Positions 3,850 to 37,193 of a stretch of DNA of 64,000 nt are shown one piece after another. A model generated the notes under the pieces. The model worked only from the letters and a program-made list of their open reading frames with translations. It did no database searches and was not told the origin of the DNA. Position numbers and translations under genes: made by a program. The stretch lies in the sequence record PZ154896.1; one strand, given 5' to 3'. Position 1 is the stretch's first letter. Every line of letters starts with the position of its first letter. The stretch is from a phage.

Positions 3850-4137
3850 TCATTCGACAGGATAAATGTCGGAAGATTCTTCAGTCTCAACAGTCCCAAG
3901 TTCGTCTTTACCATAGATACCTCTGATGTGTAGTTCGCCAAAATAAATGCGGTCACCTTCTTCAAGATATTCTGCATCTACAGGCGGAATTTCAATAACA
4001 ACTTCGTCGCATTCTAACCACCCGTAGTGTGCATCGCCAGGATGTTTTACCAATTTAGCGCAATAAACTGATTTACACTTATGATGACCACGAAGATTAG
4101 CAATTTTGGATTCTGATACGTCAAATGGATGAATCAT
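3850..4137 (-). CDS. Hypothetical Cys/His-rich protein (95 aa)
   Basis: ORF track (start trimmed to MIHPFDV with AGGGG RBS); motif HHKCKSVYCAKLVKHPGDAHYGWLEC. Confidence 0.5.
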   Translation of the reverse strand: MIHPFDVSESKIANLRGHHKCKSVYCAKLVKHPGDAHYGWLECDEVVIEIPPVDAEYLEEGDRIYFGELHIRGIYGKDELGTVETEESSDIYPVE

Positions 4138-4149
4138 AATTACCCCTAA

Positions 4150-4174
4150 AGAAAAAAAGGGGACCAAAGTCCCC
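4150..4174 (-). terminator. Rho-independent terminator after rIIB
   Basis: ggggac-caaa-gtcccc stem with 7-nt A-run on plus strand (U-run on minus transcript). Confidence 0.55.
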
Positions 4175-4179
4175 AATTA

Positions 4180-5127
4180 TTATTCTACAAATAATTCAGT
4201 AACGTCTGAAATTACTTCATAACGACAAGTACGCATCTTAGCATCACCATAGTCAACTGGGATAGATACAACATCACGTGGATGAACTTTAACCTTAACA
4301 ACTTTATCTGAGCTAGAACCAAAGTAACGAATATACGATTTAGCGCAAACATGTAGACCACGGGAGCAGGTTTGTGTATCATCATCGTTAACACGAGTAC
4401 GAGGCATTGAAACAACTTTACCAGGCGAGTTATCAAATGTGCCGCTATAGCAATCTAAATAGTCCTTACGAACTACTTTCCATGCGTAGAAATGTCCATC
4501 TTCAGTGATTTCAATATCGTTTGCAACCAAGAAGTCGAATAAACGTTGTACAGCTTTTTCGCTTGGGTTTTCTAACAGGTTTTCAAGGAACGGCAGATAG
4601 AATTTAAAGTCTTCGCCTTTTTCCATAGAATCAATAATACGATTAACCAGGCCAGAACGAATCTCTATACCTTGATAAAATAAACTACCACCTTCAATAA
4701 CAACATTACCGTCAACAAACTTACTAATAGCTTTCTTGATGTTAATAAGTTCGACAGCTTTACTAAGGTTTCCTGCGACCAGATTAGCTTTAATTTCTTC
4801 AAAATTTGCATGACTTGATGGAGTCGCATTGTATGCTACGCGTCCTTCAATAATTGAAATAAATTTAGATGACGCGTTCCATACGATTTCAGGACGATGT
4901 CCGCCGATAATAGGTTCATCATTTTCTGGAACTTCTTCGATTACATAAGAGGCATCGTTTGCTTCAGGGACAACGCCTTCTGCTTTAAAATTCTTAACAA
5001 TCTTACGAAGAGTATCTGTTGAAATGTCGAAGTAATCGGCAATTTCTTTACGAGTCCATTTGCCTGATTCAACCAGGCCGTAAGCTTCTAACTGTTCTTC
5101 TTGGGACAAGCATTTAATATTGTACAT
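4180..5127 (-). CDS. rIIB: rIIB
   Basis: 315 aa; MYNIKCLSQEEQLEAYGLVESGKWTRKEIADYF... resembles T4 rIIB; adjacent to rIIA. Confidence 0.85.
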   Translation of the reverse strand: MYNIKCLSQEEQLEAYGLVESGKWTRKEIADYFDISTDTLRKIVKNFKAEGVVPEANDASYVIEEVPENDEPIIGGHRPEIVWNASSKFISIIEGRVAYNATPSSHANFEEIKANLVAGNLSKAVELINIKKAISKFVDGNVVIEGGSLFYQGIEIRSGLVNRIIDSMEKGEDFKFYLPFLENLLENPSEKAVQRLFDFLVANDIEITEDGHFYAWKVVRKDYLDCYSGTFDNSPGKVVSMPRTRVNDDDTQTCSRGLHVCAKSYIRYFGSSSDKVVKVKVHPRDVVSIPVDYGDAKMRTCRYEVISDVTELFVE

Positions 5128-7655: not shown

Positions 7656-8756
7656 TTACGCTGTGAAGATTTTATCCCACATCGCAACAACTGCATCTCG
7701 GTTATACTTCTTCCATACTGCTTCAGCACGTTTAACTCGAGCTTCGTATGTGTCAGTGAATTCTAATACAGCTTTTGTGTAAAGCGCAACTACTTCTTTC
7801 TTAGGAGTAGAGGAATCAATTTCTACACGCACAGTATCTGGGTCGTATTCAAATGTCGCATGAGGATAATCCTTAAAAACTAACTGGATTACAGGGACAC
7901 CTTTAGAGATGGCTTCAATAGAACTATTCTCTACTGTACCTGTGTCAGGACAAGTATTAATAAGTGCTTTAGCTGTTTTAAGACGTTCCATGATTTCACT
8001 GTGTGGGGCATCAATAATAACAGGATATTTAGATGGTGGTGCCCATTTGCTTGGACAGTATCCTACACCATTTTCGCCTAGTGCTTTAATCGCTTCAAGA
8101 GCAACATCAGTACGACGCATTTTAGTGTCATAACGTTGTGCACTAATAATCAGATCAGTCGCCGGAAGAACTTCAGGTTTCTCATTCAAACAAATAACCG
8201 GATAATCTTCGGCTTCAAACAACGGATTTGCTCGCCAATAATCATAATCAATTTTGTCAGTCAGACCTGAAGTCATATGGCAATATTTACGTTCAAATTC
8301 ACGGAAGGCTTTAGTAGGAGCATAACTCTTACCACCATTCTTATGAATTTGAATAGTCTGGTCCCAAATTTGAACAATGCCACGAGATACTGGTTCAAAT
8401 GGTGTTGCCATAAAATTCTTATGAACTTTAGAGAGACCTGCGTCTTTAATTGCCTGAACGGTTAGTTTAGTCGGTTCCATAGTAACAACAAAATCGTATT
8501 CATGGATGCCGGCTAGTTCAACAATCTTACGAGCCATAGTATAACTCATACCTAGACTGAATTTAGTCAGATGACCAACAGGATGGTGTGTAACTTTCCA
8601 GTCACCAAACGTGTCATTATCAAAGCCGATATAATCAATATCAGCACCGATGGACACAAGATATTTCAACACATTTAAATGTACTGCTTCAAGGCCACCT
8701 TGTACACGGTCAGGATTAAATGGGACTGCGCGAGATGGGATAAACATAACTTTCAT
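7656..8756 (-). CDS. Candidate DNA sugar transferase (position of the RB69 putative arabinosyl-hmC transferase)
   Basis: 366-aa ORF between rIIA and gene 39; no match to T4 alpha-/beta-glucosyltransferase as remembered; call is by genomic context. Confidence 0.5.
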   Translation of the reverse strand: MKVMFIPSRAVPFNPDRVQGGLEAVHLNVLKYLVSIGADIDYIGFDNDTFGDWKVTHHPVGHLTKFSLGMSYTMARKIVELAGIHEYDFVVTMEPTKLTVQAIKDAGLSKVHKNFMATPFEPVSRGIVQIWDQTIQIHKNGGKSYAPTKAFREFERKYCHMTSGLTDKIDYDYWRANPLFEAEDYPVICLNEKPEVLPATDLIISAQRYDTKMRRTDVALEAIKALGENGVGYCPSKWAPPSKYPVIIDAPHSEIMERLKTAKALINTCPDTGTVENSSIEAISKGVPVIQLVFKDYPHATFEYDPDTVRVEIDSSTPKKEVVALYTKAVLEFTDTYEARVKRAEAVWKKYNRDAVVAMWDKIFTA

Positions 8757-26285: not shown

Positions 26286-26627
26286 TTAAAAGAATTTAAA
26301 TTTTTTCTTGGTCCGTTCATTAAAAGCTTGTTGTACTTGCATTGTAACACATTTTTCAACATGTGGTGCAAGTTCTGCTTTTCTGTCCTGGTCAAGAACT
26401 GCAAAGTCCATTACGATTTTACCATCAACCCAGTCTAGTTTTGTAATATAGACTATATGATGAGAACCATCTTCAAGCGTAATCAGAATCTCTTGAATGA
26501 CATTTTCCATTGCTGAACGGATAATTTTAAGAGATTCATTAAACACTCGTTCTTTGCGAATGTCTTCCCCTTCCGAAGAAGGGGATTCATCAACGATTTC
26601 TAGATTTAAATCATCGAGATTATTCAT
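26286..26627 (-). CDS. Small protein in gene 40 position (head-vertex assembly protein in T4)
   Basis: ORF track; ATG overlaps end of uvsX; identification positional. Confidence 0.5.
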   Translation of the reverse strand: MNNLDDLNLEIVDESPSSEGEDIRKERVFNESLKIIRSAMENVIQEILITLEDGSHHIVYITKLDWVDGKIVMDFAVLDQDRKAELAPHVEKCVTMQVQQAFNERTKKKFKFF

Positions 26628-27792
26628 CGAAATCTTCCATTTCGTCAAGGTCGTTTTCTATATCTGCTGCAGACGGAGCATCAGAAGTTTTAACCGGAAC
26701 TTTAGTTGTTGCTTTGCAATTAATAAGGTCGTTAACAGCATCATCAACTTCTTTAATAGAAGAGATAGCACCTAGTTTATATTTAGTTTCAATTGCATCT
26801 CGGAAAGGTTTGTGTTTAAACAACGGTCCCCAGAATTCTACACAATCAGTAGCTTTAGCACGCCATGATTTTTCTTCACGAATCATTTCGCCTGTTTCTT
26901 CGTCAAGGAATTCGCGAGCATACCACCCGGCTTTAGGCTTAACTACAAAACCAATTTCAGTTGCCATTTCTAACAAGCCACTGAATGGGTCAATACCACC
27001 ATCGAAATTAACCGTGATTGGGAAAGTAGATTTTTCTTTAACGGTGCGAGATTTTTCCGCTTTCAACGTGAAGTCATAACCGGTCAATTCTGTACCTTCT
27101 TTAACCTGACGTTTAGAGATAAAAAATACCGTGTTGGCAGAATAAAGAATACCTGTACCACCACCCATAATCTCTTTAGGATACAATCCGCCGATTTCCA
27201 TTGCTGTATGGTTGATTGCAACACATGGAATATCTTTAATAGTCAGATACGGGGTCACAATGCGGAACAGAGATTTAAGTGCCTTAGCACGAGACATATC
27301 ACCTACAACTTTCTCGTTCAATGCATCTTCGGTTTCTTTCTTAGACGCAGTATTACCGATTGAATCGATAAAGATAATAACTTTATCACCGCGTTCAATC
27401 GCGTCAAGCTGATTAGTCATATCAACTTTAAGTTGTTCGACAGATTGAATCGGAGTATGAACTACACGGTCTAAATCAACACCCATTGAACGAAAATAAG
27501 ATTCTGAAGCACCAAATTCCGAATCATAGAACAAACAAATTGCATCTTTATATTTCTTCATATATGCTGCAACCATGGTCAGTCCAAACAACGTTTTAAA
27601 GTGTTTAGAAGGAGCAGCAAAAATAGTTAAGCCTGATTGCAACCCAGCATTCAGTGCACCACCTAATGCAATATTCAACATCGGAATACGAGTAGGGACT
27701 TCATCACGATTATTAAACAGCTTAGACTTGGTCAAGTCTGCAGTCATTTTAGAAGTAGAAGCTTTAATCAGACGAGATTTTAAATCAGACAT
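26620..27792 (-). CDS. uvsX: UvsX recombinase (RecA-like)
   Basis: 390 aa; MSDLKSRLIKASTSKMTADLTKSKLFNN... matches T4 UvsX. Confidence 0.95.
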   Translation of the reverse strand: MSDLKSRLIKASTSKMTADLTKSKLFNNRDEVPTRIPMLNIALGGALNAGLQSGLTIFAAPSKHFKTLFGLTMVAAYMKKYKDAICLFYDSEFGASESYFRSMGVDLDRVVHTPIQSVEQLKVDMTNQLDAIERGDKVIIFIDSIGNTASKKETEDALNEKVVGDMSRAKALKSLFRIVTPYLTIKDIPCVAINHTAMEIGGLYPKEIMGGGTGILYSANTVFFISKRQVKEGTELTGYDFTLKAEKSRTVKEKSTFPITVNFDGGIDPFSGLLEMATEIGFVVKPKAGWYAREFLDEETGEMIREEKSWRAKATDCVEFWGPLFKHKPFRDAIETKYKLGAISSIKEVDDAVNDLINCKATTKVPVKTSDAPSAADIENDLDEMEDFDE

Positions 27793-27891
27793 TGTATTTT
27801 TCCATAGGCATCATTATATTTTACTCATGTTTAAAAGATAAGACGATTATATACTAACGGTTATACAGCATTTAAAACTTTAAACAGGCTC

Positions 27892-28440
27892 TTAACGAGC
27901 CCATTTGATAATTTCTGTAATCAAATAATTACGTTCGCTTGCATTAAATCCTATAACTTTGTTAGCGCCATCATGATTAAGTAATTGATACGTTTGGATT
28001 TCGTTATGAATTGCAAACTCTTCAAAATATGAAATGACTGTATTAAACCCGAATGAAGACAAAGTAATAAGGTCGTCTTCAAAACTTTCAGTCATTTCGT
28101 TACGTGTTAAAATAATTGTGAACACATCATGGTTTTGGCAAAGACGAACATAATCCTGTTCATAAACGTCGAGAACCGAGTCCGCATCTTGTCGAATACG
28201 TCCATAAACCCAGTTACTAATATATCCACGGTCTAGCAGATAAATCTTAGTAGGGTCTAAATAATTCAACATCGTTTCGAAACAGCCAACTTCATTTCGA
28301 GACTTAACATCGAAACGTCCATCAACTGTTCGTTTAGGGAAATCAATCTTTACATATCTTTCACTAATTTCCATTATGTCATTAATGAAAGTTGTTTTAC
28401 CAGCATTATCCGGGCCATCTACTAAAATAATTTTAGCCAT
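27892..28440 (-). CDS. P-loop kinase, thymidylate/dNMP-kinase-like fold, substrate unknown
   Basis: 182 aa; Walker A ILVDGPDNAGKTT and LDRGY motif. Confidence 0.6.
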   Translation of the reverse strand: MAKIILVDGPDNAGKTTFINDIMEISERYVKIDFPKRTVDGRFDVKSRNEVGCFETMLNYLDPTKIYLLDRGYISNWVYGRIRQDADSVLDVYEQDYVRLCQNHDVFTIILTRNEMTESFEDDLITLSSFGFNTVISYFEEFAIHNEIQTYQLLNHDGANKVIGFNASERNYLITEIIKWAR

Positions 28441-28441
28441 T

Positions 28442-29341
28442 TTATTCCTCGATTACGACATCTTCATATTTAGGTATATTATACGGCGAAGAAATTAAAG
28501 CATTAAAGTAGATGAACTCACCAAGACCTGGATGGAATACTTCTTCAGGATTTTCGAAATATTGAATCTTCGGTCGTCCTTTAAGAATTTGATAGTACTC
28601 AGTTTTAGTTGGTTTAAAAATTCGAATCAGCGCTTCTTCAGGATACTTATTTCTGTCGAAGCTATTATTTGGATCGGTTATATAAAGCGGTTGACCTAAT
28701 TGAATTGCACATTCAACCACTTGTTCAAAACGATAACACGGGTCACTAATTCGAAATGGATGAAAAATACCATCTAGATGAATAGGAGCCAAATCACCTA
28801 CAAGACGCTGCATGATGGAAGGACGTATAACTTTCTGGGTTACGATAATCTTATTACCATCGGCACCAGCGTTAACCAGCACTTCCTTTTGACGTTTATT
28901 CAACACAGTAGTTTGAAGTGAACGATTAACCGACAGCATGTCGGTTTTTAAGAATTCGTCAATATAAAAACGTGGTTTATTAGGGTCTGCAGTGATATTG
29001 AAATTGAATTCCACATCAAAAGCGCCGTCATATCCAGTGATATCTGTGATTAGAAAATCACAATCATAATAAGCAATTAATGAATCAACAACAAATTCAT
29101 TTTCAGACCAGAAATATTTACGAGTGTTATACGCGTTATCTTTATACCATAATGGAACAAACTTAAATTCCGGAAAAAGACGTTCACATTCTTTAATATC
29201 AGATGCATTACGTGGATATGTAATCACATCACCTGGATTAGCACGGTGCAAATGAAGTTGGAAGTTGCCATCCTTAAGGATAGCATACTGTCCAGTTTCA
29301 TAAGACCGCATACTCAAGATAGGTACGCGGAAAATAGCCAT
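28442..29341 (-). CDS. Hypothetical enzyme (299 aa) occupying the T4 beta-gt slot
   Basis: ORF track; between 42 and uvsX; no match to T4 beta-gt as remembered. Confidence 0.5.
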   Translation of the reverse strand: MAIFRVPILSMRSYETGQYAILKDGNFQLHLHRANPGDVITYPRNASDIKECERLFPEFKFVPLWYKDNAYNTRKYFWSENEFVVDSLIAYYDCDFLITDITGYDGAFDVEFNFNITADPNKPRFYIDEFLKTDMLSVNRSLQTTVLNKRQKEVLVNAGADGNKIIVTQKVIRPSIMQRLVGDLAPIHLDGIFHPFRISDPCYRFEQVVECAIQLGQPLYITDPNNSFDRNKYPEEALIRIFKPTKTEYYQILKGRPKIQYFENPEEVFHPGLGEFIYFNALISSPYNIPKYEDVVIEE

Positions 29342-30057
29342 TAGTCAAGGAATCCTTTAACATAATCAAAATCACGTTCAAACACATGGGCACTTACCAT
29401 GGTATGAGTATAATCACCAACTTCTACACCACATTCGTTAGCGATATAATGAAGTAATTTTCCTTGGAGATAAAAATCCAACTGCATAACAACAGCACAG
29501 TTCTGAGAACGCATATGACAGTGGGTATAAAGCTTACCATCACGAATATAATAAGTCACTGAGTCAGTACATGGATATTCAAGTGTTTCGTCCGAATCAA
29601 GCAAAGCCTGATCTGAACTTTCAAGAATTTGAAACACAACTCTTCGTGAATTAGGTTTCTCTTTAAGTTCTTTTAGAAGAGCTGGTAATTGGGCCGCAAT
29701 GCGAGGACCATAGAAAGTGTTGAAGTTCGCCGGCAAAACATCTGATTTTGGTTTAGAAATAAATTTAGCGACATTAGGATATGCCTTAAACGCTTCTTCT
29801 GCGTTGGTACCGCCAGAAATCATAAACTTCCAGAAGTCTTCGGCATATTCATAAGAGATGCGGTTAATACGTGGGTCGGTCATTTTGAATGTTGACGGGG
29901 TATCAACAACTACTGTCATAGACCCAATTTCATTACAACGTCCAATACGAGAATCAGTTACGAATTCCGGGTTTTCTAAAATTTCACGATTGACTGCTTT
30001 AAATGCGGTTTGAAAATCTGCGGCTTTGATATATTTCATTGTGTTATGTTTTCCCAT
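29341..30057 (-). CDS. 42: dCMP hydroxymethylase (thymidylate-synthase fold)
   Basis: 238 aa; NSRRVVFQI...CTDSVTYYIRDGKLYTHCHMRSQNCAV... homologous to T4 gp42. Confidence 0.8.
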   Translation of the reverse strand: MGKHNTMKYIKAADFQTAFKAVNREILENPEFVTDSRIGRCNEIGSMTVVVDTPSTFKMTDPRINRISYEYAEDFWKFMISGGTNAEEAFKAYPNVAKFISKPKSDVLPANFNTFYGPRIAAQLPALLKELKEKPNSRRVVFQILESSDQALLDSDETLEYPCTDSVTYYIRDGKLYTHCHMRSQNCAVVMQLDFYLQGKLLHYIANECGVEVGDYTHTMVSAHVFERDFDYVKGFLD

Positions 30058-30076
30058 GTTTACCTCAATACAATTT

Positions 30077-30100
30077 ATTATATACTCAATTCGTAAAGCT
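30077..30100 (-). promoter_or_regulatory. Candidate MotA-type middle promoter for gene 42 (aGCTTTA, 11 nt, TATAAT); second MotA-box-like copy ~30133-30139
   Basis: Direct repeat cgtaaagctt twice upstream of gene 42. Confidence 0.35.
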
Positions 30101-30178
30101 TATTTGAATTTCTTGATAATGTTGATATAACGTAAAGCTTCAGCATCGATACTTCCAAGAACACTATGAAGAAATGCA

Positions 30179-30340
30179 TCAGCGTAGTATTCCAATTGAA
30201 CAGGTTTCTTTAATCACTTTAGCCGCTTTAGTTTCAAACAGGCCCATCAGGGCCTTTTTAAGAATTTGTTCGTTGCTGTTAATTTTCGTAGTCAAAATCT
30301 CTTCATTAAGTTGGTGGTTAAAAGTTTTTCTAGAAATCAT
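30179..30340 (-). CDS. Small protein (53 aa) translationally coupled to the 386-aa gene
   Basis: Hand-translated MISRKTFNHQLNEEILTTKINSNEQILKKALMGLFETKAAKVIKETCSIGILR; ATGA overlap with upstream stop. Confidence 0.4.
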   Translation of the reverse strand: MISRKTFNHQLNEEILTTKINSNEQILKKALMGLFETKAAKVIKETCSIGILR

Positions 30341-31497
30341 TCCGGGTACCTCAAAGCGTCATCAGAGTTAGTTATATCAATAATAGATATAGAGTTTTCT
30401 GCTAACCCGTTTTTAGATAATTGACGTTTATAATATCTTTCACAATATGTACACGTCGTCCCGCAGATTTCATTAGCACAATCGAAATCTGGATGTCTGA
30501 ACCACCTTTTTTCTAAAAAGCCATCTAACAAAGAGGTTTCAATATTTACTGTATGTGAAAACTCTGTCTCATTTTCAAGAGTGAAAATGGTCTCTAAAGG
30601 CTTCCACAGTTCTAACAAATTACCTTCAAACTTTTCAGAAGCATAAGCTTCAAGAACTTTCAAAATGTAGTCTGTGCTACCTGTACGTCCTGAAACTTTG
30701 AATTGAGTGATACCAATATCATTATAAAGTTTCAAATCTTGAGGACGAACAAAACGAGTTCTCAACCAGTTAAATGGATCTGTATCACGAGCTTTAATAC
30801 AGTGCTGCATTGGATATCCATTTAAAGATTTGGCATCATCTACTGTAACATCGGTGCTATGGAAAATATAGCAAGAGTCACGATAACTACAATGTGTTGT
30901 ATACCCTTTACCAGCATTAGAACAGAACTCATTTACAAGAACTTCAAATATTATATTGTTCTTATTACAAAACTCTGCTGCACGCTTCAGGAAAGAAACT
31001 GAACGGTTCTTATGAATTCCGCAGCAGACCTTTTTGATATTATATTGGTCATGCAAGTATTTGATTTGAGTTACAGCATCGACATGTAGAATTGTTGAAA
31101 CTTCAATCTCAATGTCTTTATTGACTTCACGAACAATTTCCATAACAACAGGGTTAGCGATAGTAATACGCCATACGCCTATTGACCAAAGATACTGAAC
31201 ATAATCCTGAATAGCTTTCTTCTTCCACTCAACTAGTTCTCTTTTTGAACCAGGATTTATCGTGTTGAGTGTATAGTTAAAGCAAATACCTAATTCGTTA
31301 CAACGTTTAACGTAATCTTCTAACATCTTTTTGTCAACGTCAGGAAGCCTAAAATCAGGTCTGGCTGCTACAAAAGCCATTTCTCTTGTAGAGCCGTATA
31401 CTTCGTTTATCAAGCTATTAGGATAAGTTTTATTGAGCTCTACGATTTTATCAAGAAGAGCTAAATCAAAATTCGTTCCGATTTTAAAAGTATTCAT
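30337..31497 (-). CDS. Cys-rich putative enzyme (386 aa), unknown fold; C-terminal Cx4Cx3Cx2C metal-binding-like motif
   Basis: ORF track; CANEICGTTCTYC motif; member of sugar-pathway gene block. Confidence 0.55.
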   Translation of the reverse strand: MNTFKIGTNFDLALLDKIVELNKTYPNSLINEVYGSTREMAFVAARPDFRLPDVDKKMLEDYVKRCNELGICFNYTLNTINPGSKRELVEWKKKAIQDYVQYLWSIGVWRITIANPVVMEIVREVNKDIEIEVSTILHVDAVTQIKYLHDQYNIKKVCCGIHKNRSVSFLKRAAEFCNKNNIIFEVLVNEFCSNAGKGYTTHCSYRDSCYIFHSTDVTVDDAKSLNGYPMQHCIKARDTDPFNWLRTRFVRPQDLKLYNDIGITQFKVSGRTGSTDYILKVLEAYASEKFEGNLLELWKPLETIFTLENETEFSHTVNIETSLLDGFLEKRWFRHPDFDCANEICGTTCTYCERYYKRQLSKNGLAENSISIIDITNSDDALRYPE

Positions 31498-31552
31498 TTT
31501 TACATCTCGCGTTAATTGATGCGATGGTTTTTTGCAGGTCTTACTTAAATTA

Positions 31553-31939
31553 TTATAGATTCGGTTTATATGATTTAAATGTTTCGAATTCGCCTTTATT
31601 CATAAGAGCTTTGAATTCGTCAGGACGCATAGCTTTGTCGTCGATAATCCAATCATATACTGGTTTATGTGTTAGCAAATTATGGTACTTCAATCCAATG
31701 TTTGCCAAGTTCTGAATCAGACTTGGGAGAATGTCAATTGCTATACGACCAGGACCTACTGACTTCATACCGCGAGCAGTGTAAAGCGTTATTGTATGCC
31801 CTGCATCATACAGGGCATTAATGGCAGACACCATTTCGACGTCTGGTTTGAAGTTCACGTAATCACGATTGTTATTCCACTCTGTTATACAATCATCGAC
31901 ATCAAAACAAAGATTAAGCATGTTTTTTACACGGTGCAT
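31553..31939 (-). CDS. HAD-superfamily small phosphatase
   Basis: Motif I FDVDDCIT, motif III/IV HKPVYDWIIDDK; start ATG overlaps upstream stop (TAATG). Confidence 0.6.
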   Translation of the reverse strand: MHRVKNMLNLCFDVDDCITEWNNNRDYVNFKPDVEMVSAINALYDAGHTITLYTARGMKSVGPGRIAIDILPSLIQNLANIGLKYHNLLTHKPVYDWIIDDKAMRPDEFKALMNKGEFETFKSYKPNL

Positions 31940-33624
31940 TAGATTCGTTCCCATTGATGAGTGATATCGCCACCGATTGGACGATAGGAAACACCAGTTT
32001 CTTTATCAGTTAGTACCCATTTACCAGGATTTTTTGTAATCAGAGTAGCCGTTACAGGTTCTGCTACGTCATAACTAATAGAGCCGTCCTGAAGTACACG
32101 GCCCATGTTACGTAATTGCTTAGTCAGAAGTTCCATACCTTTATAATATGCGGCTACCGCTTTAAGTGGATTATTCTTGAAATAACCACCTAATGCAATC
32201 CAGATAATTGCTACAGCCAAATGATGATACTCGTTAAACGAACTCATCTTTCCATATTTGTAAACTAATGGATTGATGTTAATAGTCACATTACAAGTTG
32301 TTTCATCAATAGTAAACTGTCCCCAGGTCGGATTAGCATTGAATTCATCATAACCTGAAACAGCATAAAGCACTTTAGCTTCATCATACAATTTTGGCCC
32401 GTAAATCTTGGTTTCGCCAAAATATCCACGAGGGTCGATAAACTTGACTTCACCATTATCAGTAATCATAGTATTACTGAAGTTCGGGTCGCCATGAATA
32501 ACAGAGTACTGTCCCTGAGAACGGTTATGATAACGAATAAGGTGTTCTAAAGCTTGTTTCAGCATTGGCTTCAGACGCCCAATCTTAGTGTAGTTCACAT
32601 GTGTGATTTTACCAAATGAATCAATCAATGGTTGAATACTTTCACAACGATCAATAACTTTCGTATAGAACTCTTTAGTGAAATCACGACGAACAGTTTC
32701 AGGACTTACAAAATAAGTGTCTGTGCTGAATTTCAGTGCGTCTAAAATTGCATCAACAATTTGTGGACGAGCAAGACTCGATTTGGATTTAATATATTCA
32801 AATGCCGGCTTACCTTTAATGCGTTCCATTTCAAAGTTATTTTCATTAACAGAAACTAACTGAGGAACTGAATCTGATTTCACTTTAAGATACCATGAAA
32901 TCTCATCTTTCTGAAGAGCTCGGCCCTGTTCGGTTAATGCGAATTTAGTTACAGTTTCTTCACCGATTTCAACTGCATTAAAACTACGATTAAGTTCACG
33001 AACTTCATGAGCCTTTTCAAGTTTAGGCATATCACCTAAATCAATTAGATTCATAAGCTCTGATTTATTGAATGCGCTGCCGTAAAGGAATTCTACGAAA
33101 TCACGTCCTTTGCAGTATTCATGAATTTCCTCATCAGTAGAACCCATATAGAATTCCCAGTCTTTGAACTGATAAATTCCTACAACATTACCACCTGTTG
33201 AACCTACGTTAGTGATATTTTCACCGTCGAAATTATATCGACATTCGTCACCCTTAACATAGATTGCGTTAACATTCCAAGACCATGAACCAAAATCAGG
33301 AATAATATCACACCAGTTAACAATTACATTATGGCCGTCTAAATCTTTGTGTAATTTAGCAAGAGCATAAGCAGAACCATATGCTTCATCAACTGTACGA
33401 ATAGTCACATTGAACCCTTCTTGCTCACAATAAGCTCGAACAGTTTCAGCAAATTTTGAATGAACTACTACAATAATTTCATCTGCGCCAAGGTCAGAAT
33501 AAATTGTATACAAATTGCTCAGAATAGTGTCTTGTTTATAGTTAACAAGCACCTTAGGAATATGATGCGTTATTGGATACAAACGAGTTGCCAGTCCAGC
33601 ACCAAGAATAACAGCTTTTTTCAT
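31939..33624 (-). CDS. Bifunctional sugar-1-phosphate nucleotidyltransferase (N-term) / APH-ChoK-fold kinase (C-term)
   Basis: 561 aa; N-term AVILGAGLATRLYPITHHIPKVLV; C-term HGDPNFSNTMI...IDPRGYFG kinase motifs. Confidence 0.7.
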   Translation of the reverse strand: MKKAVILGAGLATRLYPITHHIPKVLVNYKQDTILSNLYTIYSDLGADEIIVVVHSKFAETVRAYCEQEGFNVTIRTVDEAYGSAYALAKLHKDLDGHNVIVNWCDIIPDFGSWSWNVNAIYVKGDECRYNFDGENITNVGSTGGNVVGIYQFKDWEFYMGSTDEEIHEYCKGRDFVEFLYGSAFNKSELMNLIDLGDMPKLEKAHEVRELNRSFNAVEIGEETVTKFALTEQGRALQKDEISWYLKVKSDSVPQLVSVNENNFEMERIKGKPAFEYIKSKSSLARPQIVDAILDALKFSTDTYFVSPETVRRDFTKEFYTKVIDRCESIQPLIDSFGKITHVNYTKIGRLKPMLKQALEHLIRYHNRSQGQYSVIHGDPNFSNTMITDNGEVKFIDPRGYFGETKIYGPKLYDEAKVLYAVSGYDEFNANPTWGQFTIDETTCNVTININPLVYKYGKMSSFNEYHHLAVAIIWIALGGYFKNNPLKAVAAYYKGMELLTKQLRNMGRVLQDGSISYDVAEPVTATLITKNPGKWVLTDKETGVSYRPIGGDITHQWERI

Positions 33625-33665
33625 GTTGTGGTCCTCATTGGTAAGTAGGAGTATTGTACACTATT

Positions 33666-33809
33666 CTAGTTAAAGCATTCATACTTTGCTTGTAGTCCAA
33701 TCATAATCCATCCGATTACAAGTGTTGGAATCATTACTGGAGCCGTTAAGCTCCAGTAGATAGTCATGATAAGCATCAATAGTAAAAGTCCTATTGTTAT
33801 TGCTTTCAT
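33666..33809 (-). CDS. Small membrane protein (47 aa) coupled to isomerase gene
   Basis: Hand-translated MKAITIGLLLLMLIMTIYWSLTAPVMIPTLVIGWIMIGLQAKYECFN; ATGA overlap. Confidence 0.4.
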   Translation of the reverse strand: MKAITIGLLLLMLIMTIYWSLTAPVMIPTLVIGWIMIGLQAKYECFN

Positions 33810-34441
33810 TGTTCGCCTCGTAACATGGCACCTAGTGCACCACCAGGGTGGAACTTAAGGAAGTCATTAGAGGTAAATCCACGCTCAGACGAAAGGTTGA
33901 TAGCAAACGTATCGATAAGCGCTAACAACAATGTAGTGGACATAGTCGGAGCCAGAGAATTCTCATCAACCTCTACTGCGATGCCTGTACAGAAAGAGTA
34001 ATCAAAAAGGGCTTCATTTTCTTGTGGAATGTCTGGGTTACAATGCAACAGAATCTGTTTGACGTTCGGACGAATCATTTTAAGATGCTTAGCCACGCCT
34101 ATCATTTCTTCAGTTTTACCAGAACGACTAATATGAATCAACACATCATTAGGCGCAATGAATCCTGCATCACCGTGAGAATAATGCCCGGTGTTCAAGT
34201 ACATACTCGGGATACCGAGTGAAGCAAATGTCTCAGAAGCTTTAGTTGCAATATTAGCATTCTTACCAACACCTGTAATAATTACTCGGCTTTCATAATT
34301 ACTAAGTCCGGGGCGTCGAAGAGTTTCTAGAATAGCATTATAACGAGCAGGGTTTTGACTAATTACTTTGGCCATAGCGGCCAAAGAAGAAGCTTGTTTT
34401 ATGATTGCGTCAATAGCGATAGTAATAGGAGTAGTTTTCAT
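33806..34441 (-). CDS. SIS-domain sugar-phosphate isomerase, KdsD/GutQ-like (arabinose-5-phosphate isomerase-like), no CBS domains
   Basis: 211 aa; ITGVGKNANIATK...HGDAGFI...ISRSGKTEE...LAPTMSTT...FHPGGALG parallels KdsD SIS motifs. Confidence 0.7.
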   Translation of the reverse strand: MKTTPITIAIDAIIKQASSLAAMAKVISQNPARYNAILETLRRPGLSNYESRVIITGVGKNANIATKASETFASLGIPSMYLNTGHYSHGDAGFIAPNDVLIHISRSGKTEEMIGVAKHLKMIRPNVKQILLHCNPDIPQENEALFDYSFCTGIAVEVDENSLAPTMSTTLLLALIDTFAINLSSERGFTSNDFLKFHPGGALGAMLRGEQ

Positions 34442-34481
34442 ATTTCTCTCATTTAATTAGTTTACCGTCCATGTCATTATA

Positions 34482-37193
34482 TCAAAAATCGAACATATCG
34501 AACAGAGATGCTTTCTTCTCGTAATCGAGTTTCGCTGCTGATGTGAATCCTTCAAGTGGTTTAATAAATGTCTTCTCAAGGAGAACAGTGTAGTCCATCC
34601 AATGAAGTACGTCGTCTTTAATTAAATCTGTGATTTCAGTACCAGAAGGCCATGCGATACATTTATCACCGAATGGGTTTCCTTCACGTAAAGGCAGAAC
34701 ATATACTTTTTCACCTTCTACAACTTGCGGTGCATCGATATTACCTTTGATAGCCCGGTTATACGTCAGAATTCCACGAATATGGAACGGGCATTTGGGA
34801 CCAGGGAATCCACCTACATCATATTTAGCAATGTTATTCGCAGAAGATACCGACGCGATGCTAATATAATTCAATTGACGGAATTCTTTTTCAAACTCTT
34901 TAAAATATTCTTGTAATGATTCTTCACCTTCTTGAAGCATACGACGAATACATTCTTTAAGAGCTTTCTGTACTGCTTTAGGAGTCGAAGATTTCTGAGT
35001 CTCTAGACCCATGATTTTGAGTTTAGGCTCAGCGTAACGAGTACCTTCCATATCCCACACGTTTAATGCATAACGTTTCTTACCAGTCCAGAATCCACCA
35101 ATACCTTTAGAACCGAGTGGAGGCCCAGCGATAGCTTCTCGGTCCATGAACATTAAGTGTTGTTTATTGTTCATGTATTCACACATTTCACGGAAACCTC
35201 TATCAATAGCTGGTTCCATACGTTCACGTGCAAACTTATCTAAGAAGTCTACCCAATGGTTGGTATCACGGAATTTAGATTCACCAACCTTATCGATAAT
35301 TTTATCAGCAGATACGTAAATAGAGTCTGTATCACCATAAAGAACGAAAGCTTCACCTTCTGTACCACAAACTTCATTCAGATATTCATTAACTTTACGT
35401 TCAATCCACTGTAAAGCCATTTGCCCGAATGTTGTGATTGCAGTAGCATTACGCAAATCATAATAACGAAACCAAACGTTGCCAAGTGCACCATAAAGTG
35501 AGTTGATAAGCAATTTACGGTTAATTTGGGCAGTCATACCTGCAACTTCAGTACGTTGAGCTCTAAACAACATTTCATTAAGAGATTTAGCAGACAACTT
35601 TTTAATCTTTTCTTTAATCTCATCGCTGAAGTCGAAACGATAATCAACATCTAATGGTTCGTCAACAGAAAGATTAGGATTATGCAATGCCTCTTTAATT
35701 ATTTCGCCATTACGTTGAGCCGCAAGCATATAACCTTTATGTTCTTTACGTTGATTAAAGACCTTAGTGATTTCAGTTGGAACTACACCATCACGATCTT
35801 TATAATACATCATGCCGTTAGGAGAACAACTGTACACATCAGAAGGACGTTCAGCAACAGCGTTAATATAATCATGCAATGGAGCTACTTTAAACGTTCC
35901 TGCTATTGTTTCTGGGCTAATATTCACTTGGCGAATAATACTTGGATACAGAGATGTAAGGTCGAAACTCATTACATATTTGTATCGATTTGGAATAGGT
36001 TCCTTAACAAAAGCGCCGGGATAAGGTTGAACCGGGTGAGAACGACCTTGTGGAATCACCTTGTTCTGCTCTTTAAGGCTATTAAAAATAATAGCATCCC
36101 AAGTTTTAATTGGACTGAACACAGATTGAATCTGTATCTTAGCATAATAACCCATGTCCAAACTCAAGTTGATGAACTGACGCTTAGCATCAATTTGCAA
36201 TACACGATACACGTCGATAATGTTATAAGAAATATATCGTTGGTGATTGCTTTCACGAAGCTTAGAAATAGGGCCGTCATATTTCAGTTTACCAACGTTC
36301 AATTCAAATTCTGAAATGTAATCCAGAGAATATGACGGTTGATTGGTAAAAGAGAATTTTTTGTAAAGGTCAATGTAATCAAGAACAGAGATACCGAACA
36401 ATGTAATGATTTCACGAGAACCATACATGTTTTCAATAACTTTAACACGAGTTTTACGATGTGGTGATAAACGTTTCGCAGTAGATTCACCAAAAATATT
36501 CTTGATTCGGTTATACACATACGGAATATCAAATGACTCAACGTTCCATCCAGTCAAAATGACAGGAGTTTTCTGTTGCCAGAAGTTGAGATATTCCATC
36601 AACAATTCTTTTTCGTTATTGAACGGCATATAAATGATTTTATCGATAATTTCGGATGGAACTTCATCACCGCCTTGTTCTTGAAGCTTAGCAGCGATTT
36701 CAATAGACCATTCTTCTACATTACCATATGGAGAATTCAATAGATCAAATACGTAGAACCTGTCGTCAATTGAGTCATAATGGGTGATAGCATCAATCGG
36801 ATGTTTTGCTTGTGACGGCTCAGGGAACCCATCCGGAGATGTTACTTCGATGTCGAAGTTAGCCACACGAATTTTTGTATGGTCGTATTTGATTTCATAG
36901 TTATAAGTGTCAGACAAATACGCCAATTTGAAATCGTCCATGCCAAGTGCTTCAAGTCCGATATCTTCCATGCGTTTAATCCATTGGGAGGCATCACGCA
37001 TATTGGCGAACAACTTACGAGTACACGGCTTACCGTAGATATCGAAATATTTCGTAGCCTGACTTTCTGGACAATGAGCAAACAGTGATGGTTTATATTC
37101 TACTTCACGAGTACGTTCACGGCCGTTAGAATCGATGTAACGTTCAAAAATTGAATCACCAATCTGTTCAACCGTTAAGTAAAATTCTTTCAT
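34482..37193 (-). CDS. 43: DNA polymerase (gp43, family B)
   Basis: 903 aa; MKEFYLTVEQIGDSIFERYIDSNGRERTREVEYKPSLFAHCPESQATKYFDIYGKPCTRKLF... matches RB69 gp43 as remembered. Confidence 0.97.
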   Translation of the reverse strand: MKEFYLTVEQIGDSIFERYIDSNGRERTREVEYKPSLFAHCPESQATKYFDIYGKPCTRKLFANMRDASQWIKRMEDIGLEALGMDDFKLAYLSDTYNYEIKYDHTKIRVANFDIEVTSPDGFPEPSQAKHPIDAITHYDSIDDRFYVFDLLNSPYGNVEEWSIEIAAKLQEQGGDEVPSEIIDKIIYMPFNNEKELLMEYLNFWQQKTPVILTGWNVESFDIPYVYNRIKNIFGESTAKRLSPHRKTRVKVIENMYGSREIITLFGISVLDYIDLYKKFSFTNQPSYSLDYISEFELNVGKLKYDGPISKLRESNHQRYISYNIIDVYRVLQIDAKRQFINLSLDMGYYAKIQIQSVFSPIKTWDAIIFNSLKEQNKVIPQGRSHPVQPYPGAFVKEPIPNRYKYVMSFDLTSLYPSIIRQVNISPETIAGTFKVAPLHDYINAVAERPSDVYSCSPNGMMYYKDRDGVVPTEITKVFNQRKEHKGYMLAAQRNGEIIKEALHNPNLSVDEPLDVDYRFDFSDEIKEKIKKLSAKSLNEMLFRAQRTEVAGMTAQINRKLLINSLYGALGNVWFRYYDLRNATAITTFGQMALQWIERKVNEYLNEVCGTEGEAFVLYGDTDSIYVSADKIIDKVGESKFRDTNHWVDFLDKFARERMEPAIDRGFREMCEYMNNKQHLMFMDREAIAGPPLGSKGIGGFWTGKKRYALNVWDMEGTRYAEPKLKIMGLETQKSSTPKAVQKALKECIRRMLQEGEESLQEYFKEFEKEFRQLNYISIASVSSANNIAKYDVGGFPGPKCPFHIRGILTYNRAIKGNIDAPQVVEGEKVYVLPLREGNPFGDKCIAWPSGTEITDLIKDDVLHWMDYTVLLEKTFIKPLEGFTSAAKLDYEKKASLFDMFDF

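Follow-up and report, generated by a model that had tools for sequence, protein, structure and literature searches.

The DNA considered here is a 64,000-nucleotide stretch of phage sequence (record PZ154896.1; the whole stretch is referred to as the window), and our subject is a pair of adjacent open reading frames (ORFs), encoding proteins of 299 and 182 amino acids (aa), that lie between a thymidylate synthase (TS) homologue, the 'gene 42' homologue, and uvsX (Table 1). The region is 98-98.6% identical by megablast to Mosigvirus genomes, including phi25-307, ST0 and JS09, and the window is Mosigvirus sequence of the RB69/HY126 type; phage HY126 has the same gene cluster, with both genes of the pair labelled 'hypothetical protein' in its GenBank record. 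The gene order of T4 (NC_000866) is 43, imm.1, imm, 42, b-gt, segA, uvsX, 40, 41, so the two ORFs occupy the slot of the T4 beta-glucosyltransferase gene, b-gt; the initial annotation of this region had placed them there, and the ORF list and the T4 record agree with it. Neither ORF is a product of chance, since homologues of each occur in hundreds of phage records with a matching distribution over genera, and metagenomic homologues are numerous for both, with the motifs invariant.

The pair is continuous with the TS homologue. The stop codon of the latter and the start codon of the 299-aa ORF overlap at 29341 as TAATG, while a single base separates the TAA stop of the 299-aa ORF from the ATG of the 182-aa ORF, with GAGGA just upstream of that start; the three genes are translationally coupled. 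A scan of positions 27700-34600 found no coding-strand terminator between any of the three, which suggests that they are co-transcribed. The scan was otherwise uninformative, its sigma-70 promoter and terminator sites being fewer than, or no more than, those in shuffled sequence.

Table 1. Genes of the modification cluster and its neighbours in the window, with assigned or predicted roles
Feature	Position	Strand	Remarks
299-aa GT-B glycosyltransferase (by predicted fold)	28442..29341	-	Intact equivalent of RB69 gp46:47; predicted base-proximal (first) arabinosyltransferase on 5-hydroxycytosine
182-aa P-loop kinase, thymidylate-kinase-like fold	27892..28440	-	RB69 gp45 equivalent; third gene of the hydroxylase-transferase-kinase module; predicted, probably a modified-dCMP kinase
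238-aa thymidylate-synthase homologue	29341..30057	-	Flavin-dependent dCMP 5-hydroxylase (5-hydroxy-dCMP synthase), not a T4-type dCMP hydroxymethylase
uvsX	26620..27792	-	Flanks the 182-aa kinase gene; the TS homologue flanks the other side of the pair
386-aa peptidase-U32-family protein	30337..31497	-	RB69 gp50; PF01136, E 6e-11, over cut-off; 280 nt upstream of the hydroxylase gene
133-aa HAD-type phosphatase	31553..31954	-	HY126 AfhF / RB69 gp51 equivalent; PHROG 1238; synteny with HY126 and RB69
561-aa bifunctional nucleotidyltransferase and kinase	31939..33624	-	HY126 AfhE / RB69 gp52:53 equivalent; by analogy, would make UDP-arabinose
211-aa arabinose-5-phosphate isomerase (putative)	33806..34441	-	RB69 gp55 equivalent; syntenic genes so annotated in NRG-P0074 and HY126
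366-aa second glycosyltransferase	7656..8756	-	RB69 ORF003c/gp3 equivalent; outside the cluster

The adjoining TS homologue bears directly on what the pair may act upon. The initial annotation had taken it for T4-type gene 42 and assumed 5-hydroxymethylcytosine (hmC) as the acceptor, but this premise is wrong, because the protein matches the crystallised HY126 enzyme (PDB 9iqc, 9ir2 and 9iqu) from end to end at 97% identity and carries a validated signature of 5-hydroxy-dCMP synthases, whereas its identity to T4 gp42 is only 25%. That signature, MRSQNCAVVMQLDF in the window, combines Asn at the position of ThyA D169 with Asp at that of N177 (RSxN; MRSQN...LDF), and the D169N/N177D combination has been validated as marking enzymes that make 5-hydroxy-dCMP (Lee et al., Nucleic Acids Research, NAR, 2026; PMC13326640). 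The same work showed that the RB69 counterpart, gp48, binds flavin and makes 5-hydroxy-dCMP with oxygen drawn from O2, and that the modified base of RB69 DNA is 5-hydroxycytosine bearing one or two arabinofuranoses (PMC13326640); Thomas et al. (2018) had reported arabinose on RB69 DNA with an hmC base assumed. Many GenBank records label the hydroxylase gene 'thymidylate synthase' or 'dCMP hydroxymethylase'. On two metagenomic contigs, L005 and L007, a gene for a Flavodoxin_2 (FMN-reductase-like) protein lies upstream of the D169N TS homologue, adjacent to it in L005 (4739-5293) and one gene away in L007 (1182-1706), where its product could plausibly furnish the flavin-dependent cytosine hydroxylase with reduced flavin; the window has no equivalent of this gene.

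The 299-aa protein eluded sequence-based classification. It matched no Pfam family at E <= 0.1 and nothing meaningful in NCBIfam; PDB sequences yielded no match by phmmer, and no transferase by hmmsearch with a 55-sequence profile; it falls in PHROG 3891, whose function is listed as unknown, and of the 137 proteins gathered by a homologue search none has a Pfam domain. The lack of resemblance to T4 beta-glucosyltransferase that the initial annotation had remarked upon was borne out at the level of sequence (best BLASTP E = 1.4). An AlphaFold model of the protein is confident (pLDDT 95, pTM 0.89) and has two Rossmann-like alpha/beta domains with a cleft between them, the GT-B transferase fold, in line with the sugar transferase that had been suggested. 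We therefore describe it as a predicted glycosyltransferase on the strength of its modelled fold and, as far as sequence can indicate, a separate family; fold comparison alone identified it. Apart from itself, its best matches in a viral structure library are two RB69 half-ORFs, 047c and 046c, to which it is 98-99% identical, so the window protein is the intact form of RB69 gp46:47 (RB69ORF046c/047c), whose gene appears in two pieces in the RB69 reference because of a sequencing error. The orthology fits by position as well, the gene lying directly downstream of the D169N TS homologue. The counterparts listed by Lee et al. are RB69 gp46:47, DLP3 gp79 and HY126 XAN60474.1, with function predicted there too, and RB69 gp46:47 appears in their Table 1 as 'arabinosyltransferase 1' from structure prediction only (PMC13326640).

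Among 55 aligned homologues of the 299-aa protein 28 positions are invariant, including S10-M-R-S13, Y19, K23-D-G-N26, R33, F193, P195-F-R197, D200, Y203, T222, P224-N225, K246 and H270-P-G272, with D223 kept in 54 of the 55. The T4 beta-glucosyltransferase, of family GT63, also has a GT-B fold and thus belongs to the same broad class; it sits in the same slot between a TS homologue and uvsX, and in both systems a sugar would be placed on a modified cytosine. The T4 enzyme, however, is basic and uses hmC as acceptor and UDP-glucose as donor, whereas the 299-aa protein is acidic and is predicted to use 5-hydroxycytosine and UDP-arabinofuranose. The latter is not a GT63 member, having neither sequence homology to T4 b-gt nor an hmC acceptor, and its structural neighbours are instead retaining GT4 enzymes (sucrose-phosphate synthase 6kih, BshA 6n1x and PimA 2gej), at 8-12% identity.

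In the 182-aa protein residues 9-17 form the P-loop GPDNAGKTT and residues 69-73 the motif LDRGY, both of which had been picked out initially together with a resemblance to thymidylate kinases (TMPKs). The P-loop, G9-P-D-N-A-G-K-T16, conforms to GxxxxGK[ST], with G9, D11, N12, G14, K15 and T16 invariant in 23 homologues, and D70-R71 is likewise invariant and is followed by G-Y, a variant of DR[YHF] with one inserted Gly. We take LDRGY to be the equivalent of the TMPK DRY motif after strand 3, from what is generally known of TMPKs and not from a superposition. The invariant Arg/Lys and Asp residues of the family are typical of nucleotide monophosphate kinases, the overall fold is that of TMPKs, and TMPKs are the closest structural matches (vaccinia 2v54, T. 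thermophilus 5x7j, and the human and yeast enzymes; 13-19% identity). P-loop sugar kinases of the gluconate/shikimate type were not the closest structural neighbours, and the similarity to gp1 (1dek) that would place the protein with T4 gp1-type kinases was not found.

In sequence comparisons this kinase lies at the margin of the TMPK family. The protein falls in PHROG 761 ('thymidylate kinase'; E 6e-45) and is 98.9% identical to the RB69 'thymidylate kinase', while PF02223 gives no match at E <= 0.1 and Pfam returns only AAA_14, below threshold. Over the stretch from the P-loop to the FPKR segment, a profile of the family has weak similarity to the TMPKs of vaccinia, yeast and human. When 1.84 billion representatives were searched exhaustively with a profile, only 45 clusters reached E <= 1e-10, and six of ten weaker neighbours that were scanned have some Thymidylate_kin signal, two of these over the cut-off. 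The family is a small, divergent, phage-restricted branch of TMPK-like kinases, which, unlike thymidylate kinases, falls under all the family hidden Markov model (HMM) cut-offs and is always linked to a cytosine 5-hydroxylase. The modelled fold points to a pyrimidine nucleotide monophosphate as substrate, for which a dedicated 5-hydroxy-dCMP kinase would be the simplest reading; in that proposed role it would resemble T4 gp1 and RB69 gp159, the deoxynucleoside monophosphate (dNMP) kinases, as a phage-encoded kinase of modified dCMP. We see no difference from RB69 gp45 and DLP3 gp78, TMPK-like proteins of which the former is entered as 'nucleotide kinase' in Table 1 of Lee et al. from structure prediction only (PMC13326640).

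The two genes travel together, and with the hydroxylase, well beyond the relatives of RB69. A tblastn search found 349 phage records with the transferase and 353 with the kinase, and the counts agree almost exactly genus by genus (transferase/kinase: Escherichia 177/177, Acinetobacter 57/57, Klebsiella 26/25, Shigella 15/15, Serratia 14/15). The 366-aa transferase encoded elsewhere in the window occurs in only 212 phage records, which, apart from a single Tegunavirus record, come from phages of Escherichia, Shigella and Acinetobacter, and phages of Klebsiella, Serratia, Yersinia, Proteus and Shewanella have the 299-aa transferase but lack the 366-aa one. This makes the 299-aa family the one transferase common to all lineages of the pathway, as would be expected of the enzyme that acts next to the base. 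Shewanella phage Thanatos keeps the gene order (TH1_062, the TS homologue, then TH1_063 and TH1_064), as do five distant metagenomic phage loci, one of them on a 355-kb contig. In all six, hmmsearch E-values stayed at or below 2e-109 for the transferase and 8e-26 for the kinase, and every TS homologue has the RSxN signature. Two of the loci, L005 and L007, have no sugar-nucleotide genes within 5-6 kb.

A more remote comparison is provided by Rhizobium phage RL38J1 (MN549360; L011 2292-4743), in which gp216, gp215 and gp214 follow the same TS-transferase-kinase order. Its DNA carries galactose and glucose on 5-hydroxycytosine, with galactose as the base-proximal sugar (PMC13326640). RL38J1 gp215 is homologous to the 299-aa family (hhalign probability 99.2%), and the best-conserved part is the N-terminal SMRSYETGxY..DGN segment. 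In GT-B enzymes the acceptor is normally bound by the N-terminal domain. The segment is a likely acceptor-recognition element, and such a family would be defined by its acceptor, 5-hydroxycytosine, and not by its sugar, a notion that fits the N-terminal conservation across differing donors. The match of gp214 to the kinase family is marginal only (57%), so that the claim of the same kinase in Pootjesviridae rests on gene position and on the fold assignment of PMC13326640. A further RL38J1 protein, gp219 (L011 6164-6727), is a dNMP kinase of the gp1 type, so that two nucleotide kinases occur side by side outside the T4-like phages too. None of the three module genes was found in the 100-150 kb segment of RL2RES (MN549361).

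Taken together, we put at about 0.72 the probability that the two ORFs are genes 2 and 3 of a conserved dCMP 5-hydroxylase, glycosyltransferase and P-loop kinase module forming the core of phage 5-hydroxycytosine glycosylation. The hydroxylase would first supply 5-hydroxy-dCMP, as shown in the literature for the RB69 and HY126 orthologues. Fold, universality and synteny point to the 299-aa GT-B enzyme as the one that would place the first, base-proximal sugar on the cytosine 5-hydroxyl, this sugar presumably being arabinofuranose here, donated by UDP-arabinose from the products of the upstream genes. GT4-like enzymes retain anomeric configuration. The base-proximal arabinose of RB69 DNA is in alpha linkage (PMC13326640), with which the modelled GT4-like retaining fold would agree if configuration is retained from a UDP-alpha-D-furanose donor. 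The 182-aa enzyme, judged by its fold and strict co-inheritance, would act as an ATP-dependent pyrimidine-nucleotide monophosphate kinase on the modified nucleotide, giving the diphosphate on the way to the triphosphate used in replication, and the second transferase would add the second arabinose. We consider sugar transfer to DNA after replication, as in T4, the more likely route. Sugar activation is already covered by other genes of the cluster (PMC13326640), which supports the assignment of the pair to transfer and to nucleotide phosphorylation.

The suggestion of the initial annotation that the 299-aa protein is a second DNA sugar transferase thus survives as regards the transferase, while its place is probably first, next to the base, since it is found in every lineage of the pathway and the 366-aa enzyme is more narrowly distributed. 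That both proteins belong to a DNA-modification cluster proved right. The term 'unknown enzymes' did not, because Lee et al. list RB69 gp45 and gp46:47 with these same roles by prediction (NAR 2026; PMC13326640), and the finding was in that sense already known. The pair are described members of the arabinosyl-5-hydroxycytosine pathway of RB69-like phages and do not constitute a new kind of system.

Several observations weigh against these assignments. As regards the transferase, it is unusually small beside the retaining GT4 enzymes, the GT4 family HMMs (Pfam Glycos_transf_1 and Glyco_trans_4) give no match, and the canonical EX7E motif is not conserved: E267 and E275 are correctly spaced, but most homologues have K or T in place of E267. 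What is kept in its place is an acidic residue at 263, H270-P-G272 and an acidic residue at 275, each in 55 of 55 sequences. The family is also acidic, with a median isoelectric point (pI) of 5.2 against 9.05 for T4 beta-glucosyltransferase, although this comparison is too weak to choose between a DNA and a nucleotide acceptor. Lee et al. report no activity for RB69 gp46:47 or DLP3 gp79, state as data not shown that single DLP3 transferases did not arabinosylate DNA containing 5-hydroxycytosine, and leave undecided whether the first sugar goes onto the mononucleotide or onto DNA (PMC13326640). For the Thanatos orthologue TH1_063, PMC12838424 describes formation of UDP-xylose from UTP and xylose-1-phosphate, detected by liquid chromatography-tandem mass spectrometry (LC-MS/MS), and a negative result on unmodified acceptors. 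As regards the kinase, it scores far under the TMPK cut-offs (TIGR00041, 15.2 bits against 83.25), and a second 5-hydroxy-dCMP kinase looks redundant because the gp1-type kinase of RB69, gp159, already phosphorylates 5-hydroxy-dCMP (PMC13326640); RL38J1, too, has both kinase types.

Some of these difficulties would be lessened if the sugar were added before replication, an alternative that we consider unlikely but the most serious of those weighed. The 299-aa enzyme would then arabinosylate 5-hydroxy-dCMP, the 182-aa kinase would take the resulting arabinosyl-5-hydroxy-dCMP, too bulky for a gp1-type enzyme, and the polymerase would incorporate glycosylated dCTP. If true, this would be, as far as is known, the first natural DNA glycosylation carried out at the level of the nucleotide and not of the polymer. 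To our knowledge no phage makes glycosylated deoxynucleoside triphosphates, and T4 glucosylation is post-replicative, both of which count against it. The scheme does account for the retention of a TMPK-like kinase beside the transferase despite a gp1-type kinase active on 5-hydroxy-dCMP, and for the tight order and coupling of the three genes; it is consistent with the acidic pI of the transferases and with the failure of single transferases on DNA, and Lee et al. explicitly leave it possible (PMC13326640). That failure, however, as data not shown, may be technical, and DLP3 gp76 and gp77 together do act on DNA, though they are related by predicted role only (PMC13326640). The pI is in any case a weak indicator, the 366-aa transferase itself having a pI of 6.4.

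It is less probable still, and in our view quite improbable, that the 182-aa protein is a sugar kinase of the arabinose branch or an ordinary dTMP kinase. The 'thymidylate kinase' label in many GenBank records and the TMPKs at the head of its structural matches speak for the latter, yet the score lies far below the family cut-offs, and the equal Escherichia counts of kinase and transferase (177) suggest that it is absent from the many hmC T-even genomes. Of the 'nucleotide or sugar kinase' proposed initially, the nucleotide type stands. A sugar-kinase role is unlikely because the gene is tied to the hydroxylase and transferase and not to arabinose synthesis: it adjoins them even in loci with arabinose genes lacking close by, and does so in RL38J1, where the sugar is galactose. 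The isomerase, the HAD phosphatase and the bifunctional kinase/pyrophosphorylase moreover account for the sugar steps, the sugar kinase and pyrophosphorylase steps having been assigned experimentally to the 561-aa protein in HY126 (as relayed by PMC13326640). Least probable is the reading of the 299-aa protein as a sugar-1-phosphate uridylyltransferase (UDP-pentose pyrophosphorylase) and not as a cytosine transferase, for although TH1_063, 47% identical to it, is credited with UDP-xylose formation, the fold is unrelated to nucleotidyltransferases, the cluster already has an NTP_transferase-domain protein whose HY126 orthologue was shown to be a UDP-arabinose pyrophosphorylase (according to PMC13326640), and only a no-enzyme control is described in the part of PMC12838424 used here, so that a co-purifying host uridylyltransferase is possible and the activity is unlikely to be native.

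Returning to the hydroxylase-transferase-kinase module as the preferred reading, its most immediate consequence is a correction of annotation, in that 'gene 42' and 'hmC' are wrong as annotations in this phage group, as are the labels 'thymidylate kinase' and 'hypothetical protein' carried by hundreds of GenBank records. The three-gene core is common to arabinose and galactose systems and to distant uncultivated phages, a comparative result that may not be new, and could serve as a compact marker for finding phages that glycosylate 5-hydroxycytosine.

The genes upstream of the hydroxylase would provide the sugar donor. In the 561-aa protein, Pfam NTP_transferase covers residues 3-99 and weak APH-type kinase matches fall at 344-409; for its HY126 counterpart the sugar kinase and UDP-arabinose pyrophosphorylase steps were shown experimentally, as relayed by PMC13326640, which likewise relays the role of the HAD phosphatase in HY126. 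In NRG-P0074 (L001 12394-13155) a homing endonuclease gene, absent from the window, lies between the HAD and bifunctional genes. The 366-aa transferase is essentially identical to the 'phage HY126 glycosyltransferase' of PDB 9iqz and 9ir0 (phmmer E 1.7e-251), and its relatives in Acinetobacter phages are 42-43% identical. Comparison by hhalign of this GT4-like protein with the 299-aa family gave a probability of 0.7%, no detectable relation, and the two transferases are therefore not recent duplicates.

Between the sugar genes and the hydroxylase lies the U32-family protein, which is the best-conserved cluster protein between the window phage and Thanatos (79% identity to TH1_065; the hydroxylase reaches 72%, the transferase 47% and the kinase 44%). 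Its sequence has cysteines at 192, 203, 209 and 233 and a C340-x4-C-x3-C-x2-C352 motif. The U32 relatives RlhA, TrhP and UbiU/V are linked to C5 hydroxylation of RNA pyrimidines or to O2-independent, prephenate-dependent hydroxylation (PMC5727448, PMC6599085, PMC10990095). By analogy, we hypothesize that the phage protein may provide an O2-independent (anaerobic) route to 5-hydroxycytosine in phages of facultative anaerobes, a route not discussed in PMC13326640, where the protein is labelled 'sugar or heterocycle reductase' without discussion. The gene was found in 222 phage records, while the 57 Acinetobacter phage records with the transferase and kinase all lack it; about 40 Escherichia records have the transferase without it, making the correlation with host lifestyle imperfect.

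Finally, the module tolerates insertions and has recurrent neighbours in distant loci. An ORF of about 200-220 aa is inserted between hydroxylase and transferase in L004 (5396-5998), L006 (3214-3873) and L008 (3277-3930), with a faint Endo-IV Pfam match in two of the three, and L007 has a NUMOD3 homing-endonuclease-like ORF between transferase and kinase (4097-5011); the order of the module is unchanged by such inserts. A YAcAr (PF10686) gene follows the kinase immediately, or nearly so, in L004 (7818-8201), L006 (5581-5973) and L008 (5542-5958), and in each of these three a dCMP deaminase gene follows about 2 kb beyond it.

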